In this document: positions 4,389-41,918 of the stretch, one piece after another
How positions within the stretch are numbered: position 1 is the first letter of the stretch
Layout of the letters: every line of letters starts with the position of its first letter
Assembly (NCBI GenBank): GCA_963805975.1
Contig: CAWDVR010000001.1
Location: 352,001 to 416,000 of the forward strand
Source of the DNA: an uncultured Acidobacteriota bacterium
GTDB taxonomy: Bacteria > Acidobacteriota > Thermoanaerobaculia > Multivoradales > SZUA-115
DNA: 64,000 nt
Reading direction: 5' to 3'
Program-made: the position numbers and the translations under genes
Notes under the pieces: model-generated
Seen by the model: only the letters and a program-made list of their open reading frames with translations
Told to the model about the DNA's origin: nothing
Database searches by the model: none

Positions 4389-5543
4389 TCAGTATGGGTT
4401 GCGGCCGAACAGGAACTCGATGCCGAGGCCGATCATCGCGGAGCCGTCGCGCGGCTTGTCGCGCTCTTTCCGCGGCCAGGTGTAGCCCACGATCAGCTCG
4501 CCGAAGAGGAACGGCTTGCCCGCCGGCCGGCGGTAGATGGCACGCGCGCCGTACTCGCGCATCCTGATCTCGGCGTCGGTCGAGCCGCGGGCGAACCACT
4601 CGGCGGCGATGGCGCGCTCTCTGTGCAGGTTGCGGTAGAGCAGGAACGCCTCGCGCCAGGCCAGGCCCTCGGTCGATTCCGTCATCGTGCCGACGCTGCC
4701 CCAGCGGAAGACCAGGTTGCGCTTCAGCACGCGGTCGTAGTCCGCGCTGCTGGTGAAGCCGAAGCCCTCGCGGTTCTCCCAGAAGGCGGTCTCGCGAAAG
4801 CGCCACACTGCGTTCTCGCCGATGAAGATGTTGCGCCGGTAGCGGCCCTGCGCGAAGACCTCGGGCGCGCTCTTGAGCTTGCCGCCGACCCGGAAGTCCA
4901 CCTTCGATTGCCACTTGCCGGGCGGGGAGTAACCGAGGCCGGCGAGCCACCGCTCCTGGCTCTCGAGGCCGAAGATCGAGGAGCGGATGGCGAAGCCTTC
5001 CTGGCGGTCGGAGACGAACTCCTCCTCGTCGTCGCGGCCCAGGAAGAGGTTGACGCGGCGCTCGAGGTTGGGCAGGTCGTAGCGCAGGCGGAGCCGGGCG
5101 CTGGGGTCGAGCCCTTCGAACTCGGTGTAGAGGCCCGAGAGCTCGACCCGCCCGGAGACCGCGCGGGCGTTCTCGACGTCCGGCTCGCCGCCGAAGAGGC
5201 CGTCGAACCAGAGCGTGGCGCCGCAGAAGGTCGCTTCGAGGAGCCGGCGGGTGTCGTCGAGAAAAGCGCCTTCGTCCGGCTGGCGGCAGAGGTCGCGGAG
5301 TCGCGGGCGGGCGATCTCGGGTGGGGAGCTGGCAGGGGCCTTCGTTGCCACCGGCTCGCCGGGCATTGCCGGGTCCGTGACCCCTGCCTCGGGGGCCGCC
5401 GCCTCGGGAGACACCTTCTCGGCCGCGGGAACCGCGCCTGGCTGGGTCTCAGGCCGCGAGCGCCCGGCGCACCCGACCGCCACCAGCCCCAGTACCAGGG
5501 CTCCGACCAGCGCACCGAGGCGCCGGGCTGATGTGGGATGCAT
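4389..5543 (-). CDS. Hypothetical lipoprotein with a probable outer-membrane beta-barrel region
   Basis: Start MHPTS; lipobox LVAVGC; Pro/Ala linker; aromatic-rich alternating strands ending IGLGIEFLF. Confidence 0.65.
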   Translation of the reverse strand: MHPTSARRLGALVGALVLGLVAVGCAGRSRPETQPGAVPAAEKVSPEAAAPEAGVTDPAMPGEPVATKAPASSPPEIARPRLRDLCRQPDEGAFLDDTRRLLEATFCGATLWFDGLFGGEPDVENARAVSGRVELSGLYTEFEGLDPSARLRLRYDLPNLERRVNLFLGRDDEEEFVSDRQEGFAIRSSIFGLESQERWLAGLGYSPPGKWQSKVDFRVGGKLKSAPEVFAQGRYRRNIFIGENAVWRFRETAFWENREGFGFTSSADYDRVLKRNLVFRWGSVGTMTESTEGLAWREAFLLYRNLHRERAIAAEWFARGSTDAEIRMREYGARAIYRRPAGKPFLFGELIVGYTWPRKERDKPRDGSAMIGLGIEFLFGRNPY

Positions 5544-35195: not shown

Positions 35196-35236
35196 TCGCG
35201 GGCTCTGGCAGGGCTGTGCTCAAGCGGGCTCTTTTT

Positions 35237-35779
35237 ATGAAAATCCGGCTCGATCAGATCCACGACGAGCCCTTCACTTGGCGCGAGAGCTCGAGGTTGC
35301 CGGTCGAAGTGCTGGACCGGCCCGAGTTGGTGGCCTTGTCCGAGATCGACTGCCAAGGCCGTGTTCAGCGTCTCGAGTCGGGCCAGGGCCCCGAGAGCTT
35401 CCTGCTCACGGTGCGGCTCGATTATCGCCAGACCCTGAATTGCGACCGCTGCCTGGCGCCGATCGAGCAACCGGTCGCCGCCGACCTGGATCTGATGATC
35501 GAAACCGCTCCCATTTCCCGGCACCAGGCCGAGGAAGTGGAGCTTGGAGAAGACGACCTCGGTGTGCTCCACGTCGAAGGTGACGTGCTCGACACCGAAC
35601 CCCTGATCGCCGAGCAGGTGCAGCTCAACATCCCGATGAAACCCCTCTGCCGCCCCGACTGCCAAGGCCTCTGCGCACACTGCGGCGCGGAGCTCAACCA
35701 GGGTCCCTGCGGCTGCAAGCAGGAGACGATGGACCCGCGCTGGGAAGCGCTCAAGGCGCTCACCCAACGCGAGCCCTGA
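35237..35779 (+). CDS. yceD: YceD/DUF177 family protein
   Basis: CDRCL, PMKPLCRPDCQGLCAHCG...DPRWEALK; upstream of rpmF. Confidence 0.92.
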   Translation: MKIRLDQIHDEPFTWRESSRLPVEVLDRPELVALSEIDCQGRVQRLESGQGPESFLLTVRLDYRQTLNCDRCLAPIEQPVAADLDLMIETAPISRHQAEEVELGEDDLGVLHVEGDVLDTEPLIAEQVQLNIPMKPLCRPDCQGLCAHCGAELNQGPCGCKQETMDPRWEALKALTQREP

Positions 35780-36081: not shown

Positions 36082-37119
36082 ATGAGGATTGCCATCGATG
36101 CGATGGGAGGCGACTTCGCGCCCCGCGAGGTCGTCGCCGGCGCCTTTCGTGCCGCCCGGCGCGAGGGGGTGGAGCTCACCCTGGTGGGCGACGGTACGGT
36201 GATCGAGCGCGAGCTGGCGCGCCTCGGGCGCTCCAGGAACGCCATCGAGGTGGTCCATGCCGACGAGGTGGTGGGCATGGACGAGCCGGCGATCACCCCG
36301 ATCCGCAAGAAGCGCCGCTCGTCGATCCGCGTTGCCGCCGAGCTGGTGCGCGAGGGCCGTGCCGCGGCCATGCTCTCGGCGGGCAACACCGGCGCCGCCG
36401 TCATCGCCGCCAAGATGGTGGTCGGCACGCTGCCCGGAGTGGATCGCCCGGCCCTGGCGGCGGTGTTCCCCAACCGCAAGGGCCACACCGTGCTGCTGGA
36501 CGTGGGCGCCAATGTGGACAGCAAGCTCGAGCACCTGCGGCAGTTCGCGGTCATGGGCCACCTCTACGCGCAGGAGATCGTCGCCACCCCGGCGCCGCGC
36601 ATCGGTCTCCTGTCGATCGGCGAGGAGGCCTCGAAGGGCACGGACTTCACCCGCCAGGTGTTCCGCACGCTCGAGGAGACGGGCCTCAACTTCGTCGGCA
36701 ACGTCGAGGGGCGGGACCTCTTCGAGGGCACGGTGGACGTGGTGGTCTGCGACGGCTTCGTGGGCAACGTGGTCTTGAAGGCAGCGGAGTCGCTCGCCAC
36801 GCTGCTCTCGGGCATGACGCGGGAGGAGCTCGGCAAGTCCTGGCGCACCCGCCTGGGCGGCCTCCTCGCCAAGCCGGCTTTCGACCGCATCCGCCAGCGC
36901 ACGGACTACCGCGAGTACGGGGCGGCCCCCCTCCTGGGGGTGAACGGCGGCTGCTTCATCGCCCACGGTCGCTCGAACGCGCGGGCGATCGAGAGCGCCA
37001 TCCGCCGCGCCGTGGAGTTCTGCGCCGCGGATTTGCACCACAAGATCGCCGACCGCCTGGCGCAGCTCCATCGCGAAGAGGAGCGGCTGCTGGCCGAGGC
37101 CGTGGGAGCCGGACGGTGA
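36082..37119 (+). CDS. plsX: Phosphate acyltransferase PlsX
   Basis: IAIDAMGGD, SAGNTGA, GVDRPAL, LDVGAN, CDGFVGN, GAAPLLG, AHGRS. Confidence 0.97.
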   Translation: MRIAIDAMGGDFAPREVVAGAFRAARREGVELTLVGDGTVIERELARLGRSRNAIEVVHADEVVGMDEPAITPIRKKRRSSIRVAAELVREGRAAAMLSAGNTGAAVIAAKMVVGTLPGVDRPALAAVFPNRKGHTVLLDVGANVDSKLEHLRQFAVMGHLYAQEIVATPAPRIGLLSIGEEASKGTDFTRQVFRTLEETGLNFVGNVEGRDLFEGTVDVVVCDGFVGNVVLKAAESLATLLSGMTREELGKSWRTRLGGLLAKPAFDRIRQRTDYREYGAAPLLGVNGGCFIAHGRSNARAIESAIRRAVEFCAADLHHKIADRLAQLHREEERLLAEAVGAGR

Positions 37120-37202
37120 TGAGCGAGAGGGCCTCGGCGCTCGTCCGGCGCATGGCCGAAGGGGTCGAGGGCCTGACCATCGAGAAGCCGGAGGATCGCT
37201 AA
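37119..37202 (+). pseudogene. 27-aa mini-ORF, probable internally deleted fabD remnant
   Basis: MSERASALVRRMAEGVEGLTIEKPEDR*; the start overlaps the plsX stop (TGATG) and the stop overlaps the fabG start (TAATG). It occupies the fabD position and its tail resembles FabD C-termini. Confidence 0.6.
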
Positions 37203-37945
37203 TGTTCCGACTGGACGGCAAGACGGCGCTCGTCACCGGCGCCTCGCAGGGCATCGGCGAAGAGGTGGCCCGGACGCTCGCCGGTCAGGGCGCCAAGGTG
37301 GTGCTCGCGGCGAGAAACGTCGACAAGCTGACCGCGCTCGCCGAGGAGATCGCCGCCGGCGGCGGCACCGCCCTCGCCTGGCCGCTGGACCTCGCTCAGC
37401 CCGAGGCGATCGCCGCCGCGCTCGACGGGCTGCCGGCCGAGCTCGCCGAGATCGATATCCTGATCAACAACGCCGGCATCACGTCGGACAGCCTGCTGGC
37501 CCGCATGGACCTCGACTCCTGGCGCCGCGTGCTCGACACCAACCTCACCGGCGCCTTCGCCGTCACCCGCGCCCTGGTGCGCGGCATGATGAAACGCCGC
37601 GGCGGGCGCATCATCTCGGTGTCCTCGGTGGTGGGCCTGATGGGCAATGTCGGGCAGGCCAACTACGCGGCCTCGAAAGCCGGCCTGATCGGCTTCTCGA
37701 AGTCGCTCGCCCGCGAGCTGGGAGGCCGGGCGATCACGGTCAACGTGGTGGCGCCGGGCTACGTCGAGACGGCGATGACCGCCAACCTGCCGGAGTCCGC
37801 GGTCAAGGCGCTCTCCGAGTCCATCGTGCTGCGGCGCCTGGGCTCGGCGCGGGACGTGGCCGCAGCGGTGCTCTACCTGGCGAGCGACGAGGCCGCCTAC
37901 GTCACCGGCCAGGTGCTCAATGTCTCCGGCGGGCTCTACATCTAG
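37202..37945 (+). CDS. fabG: 3-oxoacyl-ACP reductase
   Basis: TGASQGIG, NNAGI, SSVVG...GQANYAASK, VAPG, YVTGQ. Confidence 0.96.
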   Translation: MFRLDGKTALVTGASQGIGEEVARTLAGQGAKVVLAARNVDKLTALAEEIAAGGGTALAWPLDLAQPEAIAAALDGLPAELAEIDILINNAGITSDSLLARMDLDSWRRVLDTNLTGAFAVTRALVRGMMKRRGGRIISVSSVVGLMGNVGQANYAASKAGLIGFSKSLARELGGRAITVNVVAPGYVETAMTANLPESAVKALSESIVLRRLGSARDVAAAVLYLASDEAAYVTGQVLNVSGGLYI

Positions 37946-38054: not shown

Positions 38055-38297
38055 ATGCCTGTTGCGGACAAGGTCAAGGGAATTATCGTCGAGCAGCTCG
38101 GCGTGGATGAGGACGAGGTGAAGATGGAGGCCAGCTTCACGGACGACCTGGGCGCCGATTCGCTCGACATCGTGGAGCTGGTGATGGCGTTCGAGGAGGA
38201 GTTCGGCATCGAGATCCCGGACGAGGACGCGGAGAAGATCTCCAACGTCCGGGACGCCGTCGCCTACATCGAGCAGCACGCCGAAGGCGACAACTAG
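38055..38297 (+). CDS. acpP: Acyl carrier protein
   Basis: [21 protein letters not shown]. Confidence 0.98.
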
Positions 38298-38309: not shown

Positions 38310-39542
<1,233 letters not shown>

Positions 39543-39546
39543 GGCC

Positions 39547-39677
39547 GGAGCCCTCACCCTAACCCTCTCCCGCACGCGGGAGAGGGGACCGGAGGAAGAG
39601 GATCTCGTTCGGCGGCGGGGCAGGTCCGGCCCCCTCGCCCCGCGTGAGCGGGGAGAGGGCTGGGGTGAGGGGCTCTC
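39547..39677. repeat. REP-like composite inverted repeat (CCCTCACCC-type), copy 1
   Basis: CCCTCACCCTAACCCTCTCCC-GCACGC-GGGAGAGGG with an inverted second arm; lies between the convergent fabF and S9 peptidase genes. Confidence 0.8.
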
Positions 39678-41918
39678 CTACTTCAGCCACCGATCGAAGA
39701 AGTCCGTCATCGCGCGGTAGAAGTGCTGCTCGGCCTTGCCGCGCAGGCCGTGCTTCTGGCGGGGCAGGATCAGTTCCTCGAACAGCACGCCCGCGTCGAT
39801 GAAGGCCTGGCTCATCGCCAGCGTGTTCTGCGGGTGGACGTTGTCGTCCGCCGTGCCGTGAACCAGGAGCAGGCGGTCCGTGAGGCGCGCCGCATAGGTC
39901 ACCGGCGAAGCGACCTCGTAGCCGCGCGCGTTGTCCTGCGGCGTGTCGAGATAGCGCTCCGTCCAGATCGAGTCGTAGAGCTTCCAGTCGGTCACCGGCG
40001 CGCCCGCCACCGCCGCCTTCCAGACCCCCGGCTTCTGCAGCACCGCCTGGAGCGTGTTGGTGCCGCCTCCCGACCACCCCCAGAGGCCGATGCGGCTCGC
40101 GTCCACGTAGCCGAGCGTCTTCAGGTACTCGACGCCGGCCAGTTGCGCGTCCAGGTTCCAGTTGCCGAAGTTGCGGTGCACCTTGTCCTCGCCACCCTTG
40201 CCGAAAAAGCCGGTGGTGAGGTTGTCGACCGACAGCACCACATAGCCGCGCTGGGCCATCATGCGGTGCCAGGCGTCACGGCCGCGGCTGTCCCAGCGCC
40301 TGGTCACCACCTGCGAGGCGGGGCCGCCGTAGTGATACATGATCGCCGGGTACTTTTTCTTGGGATCGAAGCCGGGTGGCCTGAGGATGCGCGCCGGCAG
40401 CTTGTTGCCCTCGAGGCTCCAGATCGCCTGGAATTCGAAGCGCGGCAGGGTCTTGGGGTCGAAGGACGGCGGTGGGCCGGTCGGCAGCTCCATCACCGCC
40501 TTGCCGATGATCTCCATCAGGCGGCGCTGTGGGGGCTCGTCCGCGGTCGAGACCGTGTGCACCCAGTGTTGGGCGCCGGGAGCGATCAGGGCCTCGTTCC
40601 AGCCCTCGGCCTGGGTCAAGGCCTGCGCCGGCCCGCCGTCGAGCGCCACGCGGTAGACCATGCGGCTGGCGGCGCCCATGCCGGAGCCGGAGAAGGTGGT
40701 GTAGTAGACCTTGCCCGCCGCCTCGTCCACGGCCTCGACCGAGGTCACGGCCTGGAGGCCCACGGTCAGCTCCCGCACCAGCTTGCCGTCACCGCCGTAG
40801 AGAAAGAGCTGCCGCCAGCCGGTGCGCTCCGAGGACCAGAGGAACCGGCCGTCCGAGAGGAACCGCCCGTCGGTGGTGAGGTTGACCCAGGTCTTGGCTT
40901 CCTCGGTGAAGAAGGGCGCGCACTTGCCCGTCGTGGCCTCGCAGCGCACCAGATCGAGCCGGGTCTGGCCGCGGTTCAGCCGCTCGACGACCAGCGCGTC
41001 GCTCGCCGGCGCCCAGTGGACGCGGGCGAGGTAGTCCTCGGGCGCGCCGCCGGTCGAGAGCCAAGTCGTCTTGCCCTTGGCGAGATCGAGCACGCCGATC
41101 CGCACCTTGGGGTTGGGCTGGCCCGCCTTGGGGTACTTCTGCCATTCGACGGTGGGGTAGGTGGGCAGGAAATCGACCAGCGGGTAGGAGGGAACCGGGG
41201 TCTCGTCGAACTGGTAGTAGGCGATCCTCTTGCCGTCCGGGCTCCACCAGTAGCTCTCGGGGCTGCGGTTCCAGATCTCTTCCCAGTAGACCCAGTCCGT
41301 CTTGCCGTTGAGGGTGACGTTCGCCTTGCCCCCCTGGGTGAGCGCCTTCTCGCGCCGGGTCGCGAGATCCAGGCGGTAGAGGTCGAACCCGCGCACGAAG
41401 GCGATCGCGCCGCCGTCCGGAGAGAAGCTCGCGAGCTCCTCGGTCTCCGGGGTGGTGGTCAGGCGCACGAGCTCGCCGGCGGCCGAATCGGCGGGCAGGC
41501 GCTGCAGGAACAGGTCGCCGCCCGACTCGACGAGCACCGCATCGCCCCGCGGCGAGAACCGGTAGCTGTCGATCGAGGCCTTCTCTCCCTCCTTGGCGGG
41601 CAAGGTGCGCGCTTCGAGAGCTGTCCCGGCGCGCCGGCTCGCCACCTCCAACAACCACAGGATCTCGCCGCCGGCCGCGTCGGGCAACAAATAGCCGAGG
41701 CGCTTGCCGTCCGTGCTCCAGGCGATCTGTTTCGGCCAGGCGCCGGGCCGGGACTCGGAGAAGATCTGCTCGAAGGTGAGCACCGGGGCCGCTGCCGGGG
41801 GATCTGCCGGCCTTGGAGGCGGGGGAGTCGCGGTGTCGGCTTGCGGCGAACCGGCCAGTCGGATGGCACCACCGGCGAGCAGGAGGAAGGCGAGGATCGG
41901 GCGAAAGGTCGGGCGCAT
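39678..41918 (-). CDS. S9B family dipeptidyl peptidase IV
   Basis: Signal peptide; DWVYWEE, WWSPDG, YPKAG, YGGP, GWSGGG, HGTADDNVH. Confidence 0.93.
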   Translation of the reverse strand: MRPTFRPILAFLLLAGGAIRLAGSPQADTATPPPPRPADPPAAAPVLTFEQIFSESRPGAWPKQIAWSTDGKRLGYLLPDAAGGEILWLLEVASRRAGTALEARTLPAKEGEKASIDSYRFSPRGDAVLVESGGDLFLQRLPADSAAGELVRLTTTPETEELASFSPDGGAIAFVRGFDLYRLDLATRREKALTQGGKANVTLNGKTDWVYWEEIWNRSPESYWWSPDGKRIAYYQFDETPVPSYPLVDFLPTYPTVEWQKYPKAGQPNPKVRIGVLDLAKGKTTWLSTGGAPEDYLARVHWAPASDALVVERLNRGQTRLDLVRCEATTGKCAPFFTEEAKTWVNLTTDGRFLSDGRFLWSSERTGWRQLFLYGGDGKLVRELTVGLQAVTSVEAVDEAAGKVYYTTFSGSGMGAASRMVYRVALDGGPAQALTQAEGWNEALIAPGAQHWVHTVSTADEPPQRRLMEIIGKAVMELPTGPPPSFDPKTLPRFEFQAIWSLEGNKLPARILRPPGFDPKKKYPAIMYHYGGPASQVVTRRWDSRGRDAWHRMMAQRGYVVLSVDNLTTGFFGKGGEDKVHRNFGNWNLDAQLAGVEYLKTLGYVDASRIGLWGWSGGGTNTLQAVLQKPGVWKAAVAGAPVTDWKLYDSIWTERYLDTPQDNARGYEVASPVTYAARLTDRLLLVHGTADDNVHPQNTLAMSQAFIDAGVLFEELILPRQKHGLRGKAEQHFYRAMTDFFDRWLK

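Follow-up and report, generated by a model that had tools for sequence, protein, structure and literature searches.

A recent in-frame fabD deletion in an acidobacterial genome, and polyketide synthase acyltransferases as candidate replacements for FabD in its order

FabD is usually treated as an essential step of bacterial fatty acid synthesis, and the operon described here holds in its place a frame of only 27 codons. What is this short frame, and where might the malonyl-ACP come from? The window (the whole stretch of 64,000 nucleotides that was analysed; coordinates without a prefix are positions in it) belongs to the genome called G000 here, and G001 is a fabD-bearing relative. On its plus strand lie yceD of the DUF177 family (35216..35779; Pfam PF02620, E 6.5e-32), a 61-codon ORF named rpmF (ribosomal protein L32; 35861..36046) because its position fits the E. 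coli order yceD-rpmF-plsX, plsX (36082..37119; PF02504, E 7.7e-113), the 27-codon fabD remnant (37119..37202), in which both FabD termini are fused in frame, fabG (37202..37945; PF00106/PF13561, 87% identity to G001 FabG), acpP (38055..38297; PF00550, 95% identity to G001), and fabF (38310..39542; PF00109/PF02801, 92% identity to G001). This is the E. coli operon order minus fabH and fabD, both of which are missing between plsX and fabG. As the first-pass annotation had described, a single mini-ORF, with the translation MSERASALVRRMAEGVEGLTIEKPEDR, fills the whole plsX-fabG gap. The plsX stop TGA (37117-37119) overlaps its ATG (37119-37121) in a TGATG, its own stop TAA (37200-37202) overlaps the fabG ATG at 37202 in a TAATG, and the fabG Shine-Dalgarno sequence GGAGG (37190..37194) lies inside the kept fabD tail, 7 nt ahead of the ATG. 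A promoter and terminator scan of the locus found nothing. At the far end of the operon, fabF and a dipeptidyl peptidase gene are separated in G001 by an additional gene of about 900 codons (L207:6322-9039), and the window has no such gene at 39542-39678.

We compared the mini-ORF with P0003, the closest intact FabD found (315 aa); the nearest FabD homologues that carry a name are assigned to Thermoanaerobaculia. The mini-ORF consists of the first six FabD codons and the last 22, with Ser6 common to both, and P0003 has the identical residue at 4 of the 6 head positions and 18 of the 22 tail positions; 288 of the 315 codons are missing, all catalytic residues among them. This similarity exceeds chance. 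When the 22-residue tail was compared with every stop-to-stop peptide of ≥40 aa in the genome, the next best site matched it at 11 positions, and tblastn of G001 FabD against the whole G000 genome matched the gap (71% over 21 aa, E value = 0.014). PlsX was searched in 41 genomes and the loci were taken for the best 30; a FabD start lay downstream of plsX in all 29 relatives' loci (27 directly after plsX and 2 after fabH), 3 of these fabD loci being cut by a locus or contig end. The remnant thus has what defines a deletion scar, namely both FabD termini at a syntenic site and kin with intact fabD, and the FabD termini of relatives do align to it. It resembles the FabD (TIGR00128) of the yceD-rpmF-plsX-fabH-fabD-fabG-acpP-fabF operon in its position, its head and tail residues, and its inherited overlaps, but it has no match to that family or to any Pfam family, and its 27 aa do not make a functional FabD, which has about 300 aa with the GHSxG serine, Arg117, and His201. 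The annotation had proposed that an in-frame deletion fused the FabD start to its tail, and we regard it as virtually certain that a real fabD deletion left these 84 bases as its scar. Such a scar is, as such, an ordinary kind of thing. The probable deletion junction lies at 37133..37136, placed from the P0003 termini and from the point where the match to a second data set (run X2, below) ends, and the join is probably the short stretch around a Ser codon present in both the head (Ala-Ser) and the tail (Leu-Ser).

The annotation had left room for an assembly artefact, and six sequencing runs were aligned to the window. In run X1, whose plsX is about 98% identical, a 436-letter contig crosses the short gap in one piece over window positions 37020-37224 (208 letters for 205, with 7 substitutions and 7 gap letters); the adjoining plsX contig differs from the window at 22 of 955 letters. 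Run X2 comes from a relative of about 96% identity (53 of 1195 letters differ) and has 872 letters between 37124 and 37133, which is the size of an intact fabD; its contig and the source contig of P0003 both have 1312 letters. Runs X3, X4, X5, and X8 had no contig across the junction and are no evidence of absence, and a scan of JGI metagenomes returned only distant PlsX (≤71% identity). The source reads of G000 were not among the runs (best word share of any run, 0.34), and the assembly has frameshift-like splits; nevertheless, the independent X1 contig also holds the short gap, and a mis-join would not make the four amino acid changes that separate the remnant from P0003. We therefore consider the chance that the deletion is an artefact of the G000 assembly to be negligible. 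The deletion is recent. Judging by its listed indels, the X1 junction appears to differ from that of the window, keeping tail-side codons that the window lost and losing head-side codons that the window keeps; this difference implies either two deletions or one deletion trimmed twice.

Could the remnant be actively kept? The annotation had regarded it as a translational-coupling bridge, at which ribosomes leaving plsX re-initiate and reach the fabG start, with selection holding the frame; a variant has selection acting against an N-terminally extended FabG. The stop/start overlaps at both ends fit this idea, as does the X1 junction, which differs from that of the window and has a 15-base stretch in a shifted frame while its listed indels still sum to +3. 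However, the X1 overlap was read from listed differences only (two of the 7 substitutions are unlisted), and a frame kept in two different junctions is mild evidence, since it is expected about 1 time in 9 by chance without selection. No stop codon interrupts the fabG frame anywhere in the gap; a frame-shifted deletion would therefore extend FabG, and avoiding such an extension explains the kept frame as well as coupling does. Furthermore, X2 aligns gap-free on both sides, which indicates that the overlaps and the Shine-Dalgarno sequence predate the deletion and were inherited from the intact operon. fabG has a well-spaced Shine-Dalgarno sequence of its own, the RNA over the gap is no better folded than its shuffles (z = −0.95) and shows no unusual structure needing unwinding, and four relatives join plsX to fabG without any remnant. 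Among the listed X2 differences, the only ones used for this comparison, 0 of 3 in the remnant fall at third codon positions vs 16 of 21 in plsX (Fisher P value = 0.028, or 0.010 when the Arg/Leu change of P0003 is added). Judged by these codon positions, the remnant peptide is under relaxed selection and drifting, not conserved. The overlaps and the ribosome-binding site that the annotation had noted are thus present, but they surround a drifting peptide that other lineages do without, and a bridge held by selection seems to us possible but doubtful. In our reading, the retained piece is mainly what a deletion can leave while sparing the fabG ribosome-binding site.

The absence of fabH, which had been treated as part of the same event, proved to be older: 27 of 29 relatives' loci also have no fabH at this site, so its absence from the operon is ancestral and a joint loss of fabH with fabD is ruled out. 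As a FabH alternative, we found an unlinked KAS III of 356 aa at G000 C3:625355, which keeps Cys-His-Asn, passes NCBIfam NF006829 (323.8 vs 249), and misses TIGR00747 (279.5 vs 292.1), a cut-off passed by only 21 of 41 genomes; its orthologue is present in G001. AccA, AccD, and FabZ are present in G000, AccB/AccC were identified by motif, FabI has 46% identity to E. coli, and lpxD-fabZ-lpxA was read from the predicted gene order; no other type II gene that we looked for was missing. For the phosphopantetheinyl transferase, PF01648 gave one match in G000 and one in G001. fabD itself was found nowhere else in the G000 assembly (96.35% complete, 6 unclosed contigs): PF00698, a FabD profile, and E. 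coli FabD all returned the same four matches, each inside an open frame of 1961-14225 aa encoding a polyketide synthase (PKS) or a hybrid with a nonribosomal peptide synthetase (NRPS-PKS). A fabD relocated within the assembly can thus be rejected, and the malonyl-ACP supply must come from elsewhere, as the annotation had anticipated. Two other candidates were dropped as well. MadB/YiiD_C occurs in 0 of 5 genomes, and a FabK/NMO-like gene does not track the loss of fabD, being present in 23 of 32 genomes irrespective of whether they have fabD.

One way to live without fabD would be to abandon de novo synthesis. In Staphylococcus aureus, fabD truncation mutants bypass type II synthesis and depend on outside fatty acids (PMC5059476). 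The two cases are alike in that fabD loss is survivable; they differ in that G000 keeps its acetyl-CoA carboxylase and lipid A genes. PlsY was not found in G000, which would suit such a dependence, but it was likewise not found in the fabD-bearing G001. G000 keeps AccABCD, FabZ, FabI, FabG, FabF, and lpxD/lpxA, and AccA, AccD, and FabZ are kept in four older fabD-less lineages. Lipid A, moreover, requires 3-hydroxyacyl-ACP. We consider dependence on outside fatty acids highly unlikely.

Those four lineages came from a survey of the order, in which 274 of 300 genomes passed the TIGR00128 cut-off. We inspected the plsX loci of the 26 low scorers: 15 had a broken or cut fabD, 6 ended before the site, and 1 had no plsX match. 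In the other four, G048, G049, G060, and G066 (assemblies 90-96% complete, in 70-890 contigs), plsX is joined to fabG with no remnant and no fabD-level match elsewhere; AccA, AccD, and FabZ are kept in all four. Mapping the loss on a quick tree of 36 PlsX proteins required 5 changes for the five fabD-less genomes, and starred branches forced 3 of these. On this tree, fabD would have been lost separately at least three times and probably five. In a distant metagenome contig (L199:3001-4753; PlsX 44% identical), fabG also directly follows plsX, and the locus has no fabD.

Two of the four relatives carry an acyltransferase (AT) as a gene of its own. G048 has a 436-aa AT-only gene (L204:8712-10019) between pyruvate dehydrogenase genes and htpG (neighbours named from a reading of their G000 matches), and G066 has an AT-only gene of about 400 aa (L211:390-1592) after an amidohydrolase-like gene. 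A database search added ten further proteins, which are 412-450 aa long and end equally short (P0122-P0129, P0133, P0143). A quick tree built from 81 AT domains placed these 12 stand-alone ATs and one embedded AT of G060 (L202:8836-14565, G060:C54) in a single clade (SH-aLRT, 98). When a profile of the 12 was run over the 300 genomes, with 5 candidates scored per genome, the G060 AT, which is outside the profile, scored 703.5 bits and the next 647.6; among the 150 listed of 475 matches, the only open frames of <600 aa were the G048 and G066 genes, both of which are in the profile. Of the 12 residues that are diagnostic for the stand-alone clade, the G060 AT has 10, and it is possibly an intermediate stage; G060 has 2 AT matches, with no stand-alone AT among them. 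G049 has a PfaA-type protein (L212:8163-11123, G049:C266) scoring 944 bits on a contig-cut protein, against a TIGR02813 cut-off of 1010. A 3094-aa frame with several FabA-like domains on G049:C243 (L082) makes up, together with this protein, a Pfa-like synthase.

The stand-alone ATs also differ from the others at the surface that would meet the carrier protein. FabD residues R287 and K189/R190 contact AcpP, at an interface that tolerates mutation (bioRxiv 10.1101/2020.05.15.098798). The column equivalent to R287 holds Arg in 12 of 12 stand-alone ATs vs 24 of 69 other ATs, and a basic residue stands near K189/R190 in 12 of 12, where 53 of 69 others have Gly (with an alignment gap there); these very sequences, which are related, also served to choose the diagnostic columns, and neither these residue contrasts and the counts of diagnostic residues nor the third-position contrast in the remnant are independent tests. 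We predict that the G048/G066-type stand-alone ATs are FabD replacements with AcpP as their partner. PKS ATs are common in the order (134 of 300 genomes matched the AT profile at E ≤ 1e-135), so that their co-occurrence with fabD loss is weak evidence alone. Scanning GTDB contigs by motif yielded 45 loci and no further stand-alone AT, and a class sample, itself without a demonstrated positive control, gave 0 of 401 at E ≤ 1e-190. Like the stand-alone ATs of trans-AT PKSs, the G048 and G066 proteins are free-standing and would act in trans. Unlike them, they originate from cis-AT modules and have retained the linker between KS and AT (their closest solved structures are ZmaA and CurL), and their genes adjoin housekeeping genes rather than PKS clusters, with the fatty acid AcpP as the predicted partner.

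A precedent exists for an embedded domain doing the work of FabD. The malonyl transacylase domain of PfaA is a FabD bypass in Photobacterium profundum SS9 and E. coli: fabD of P. profundum can be deleted but is synthetically lethal with pfaA, and Pfa synthases rescue fabD loss in E. coli, with the same predicted for other such synthases (PMC8174602). The likeness to the present genomes is that fabD is gone, type II synthesis continues, and a megasynthase-embedded AT is the proposed malonyl-AcpP donor; G049 has PfaA. The differences are that the known case is a laboratory deletion or suppressor, whereas here the loss is natural and repeated, and that the known donor is a polyunsaturated fatty acid synthase, whereas the candidates in G000 are modular or PksE-like ATs known from sequence. 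PfaA was not found in G000 (best candidate, 514.8 bits vs the TIGR02813 cut-off of 1010), which places G000 outside the PfaA-bypass class; we propose, by analogy, that it works like that bypass without being a member.

In G000, we hold it somewhat probable that an AT embedded in a PKS replaces FabD. All of its candidate donor ATs sit in secondary-metabolite clusters, and none falls inside the stand-alone clade. The ATs on C2, C5, and C3 have GHSxG, the Arg117 equivalent, and HAFH, i.e., intact malonyl-type catalytic motifs; that on C1 is atypical, with GYSLG and no HAFH. The C2, C3, and C5 genes are shared with the fabD-bearing G001 and hence predate the loss of fabD. The C2 protein (G000:C2:210322-216057) is a KS-AT-KR-DH-ACP synthase whose AT falls in the sister group of the stand-alone clade with modest support (84-87). 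Its Ser/Arg/His and HAFH are intact, Lys and Arg stand at the 279 and 286 columns, Gln stands at the 287 column, and Gly lies near 189/190. It has 4 of the 12 diagnostic residues, compared with 10 of 12 in the G060 AT. Adaptation relative to its G001 orthologue was looked for and not seen, as both have 4 of 12. In our reading, the loss of fabD in G000 would be too recent for AT adaptation to show. The PksE-like synthase on C3, with a layout like that of PfaA, was demoted as first-choice donor, its AT having Glu, Asp, and Gly at the 279, 286, and 287 columns. We name the C2 protein as the best candidate donor, ahead of the C5 NRPS-PKS and the C3 synthase, but only tentatively, this being the step of which we are least sure.

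The C5 protein could have become a donor in another way. In G000, it stops after its AT, and the ACP opens a second ORF, whereas the G001 protein is continuous; if the frame break (near G000:C5:230480-230560, i.e., L374 near 4480-4560) were real, it would free a C-terminal KS-AT to act on AcpP. It lies near a short G run, however, a typical site of long-read error, and the assembly has other splits; the C5 AT has 0 of 12 diagnostic residues, and the search for a close relative for comparison found none (best, 56%). The break is probably a sequencing error, and a freed C5 domain is a very unlikely donor.

It is also unlikely, in our judgement, that malonyl-ACP arises without any AT domain, whether because AcpP malonylates itself, because a ketosynthase has transacylase side activity, or because an unrelated enzyme does the work. 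Self-acylation of ACPs is known from other systems, which speaks for such a route. The reported, uncharacterised suppressors of E. coli fabD89 do so too (PMC8174602). But AcpP has 95% and FabF 92% identity to its counterpart in the fabD-bearing G001, each of the four other fabD-less genomes has an AT of PKS or Pfa type, in three cases from a single clade, and YiiD_C/MadB was absent from the genomes searched for it.

The main rival to an embedded PKS AT is a gene in the unassembled part of G000, either a fabD, relocated or acquired, or a stand-alone AT of the G048/G066 type, with the remnant as the scar of a redundant copy. The contigs are unclosed and the assembly incomplete, at 5.36 Mb vs about 6.2 Mb for G001; two fabD-less relatives carry their stand-alone AT at an unlinked site, and no G000 AT shows the residues of the stand-alone clade. 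On the other hand, the assembly has tRNAs for every one of the 20 amino acids, all other type II genes sought lie within the assembly, and the G060 AT, embedded and with the clade signature, suggests that an embedded solution exists. We give this rival a minor but appreciable probability.

For an embedded PKS AT as the replacement in G000, the sequence of events might be as follows. PKS genes already present in the genus would have made fabD dispensable. fabD would then have been deleted, the deletion stopping just short of the start codon and of the fabG ribosome-binding site, so that fabG would still be translated and the remnant peptide would have no function of its own. The AT domain of one PKS would load malonyl onto free AcpP in trans, and fatty acids would still be made. 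Across the order, we suggest, in what we judge an evenly balanced proposal, that fabD was lost repeatedly because ATs of secondary-metabolite PKSs were recruited into core fatty acid synthesis, the genomes representing successive stages. G000 would be the first, with a fresh in-frame scar and an unmodified embedded AT; G060 would be the second, with an embedded AT that gained FabD-like basic residues at its AcpP-binding surface; and G048 and G066 would be the third, with the AT cut free as a separate housekeeping gene.

What makes these genomes notable is that fabD was lost repeatedly in nature and that a clade of PKS-derived ATs accompanies the loss. In a literature search that covered mostly papers outside subscription, we found no description of fabD being lost repeatedly in nature, nor of a PKS-derived replacement that stands alone. 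If the proposal is true, these genomes offer natural examples, with named residues, of a PKS AT changing its carrier specificity; a secondary-metabolite cluster would be essential in this organism and would show a route from a dispensable biosynthetic cluster to an essential one.

Several further features of these genomes were observed. PlsY (PF02660) was not found in G000, G001, or G066, although plsX is kept, and is present in G048 and G060. The atypical C1 AT of G000 belongs to an NRPS-PKS encoded in one frame of about 14,200 aa (G000:C1:1088363-1131025) and possibly uses another substrate or is inactive. On C3, a DUF1702 gene, the PksE-like iterative PKS, and a thioesterase lie together (G000:C3:326310-336438; L375:2310-12435) and are shared with G001; we take this set to resemble an enediyne core cassette. 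Finally, C2 holds two pairs resembling a type II KS and chain-length factor (1155293-1158050 and 524050-526441), with no AT adjoining; one pair has an ACP and a halogenase-like neighbour, and both would need a malonyl donor.
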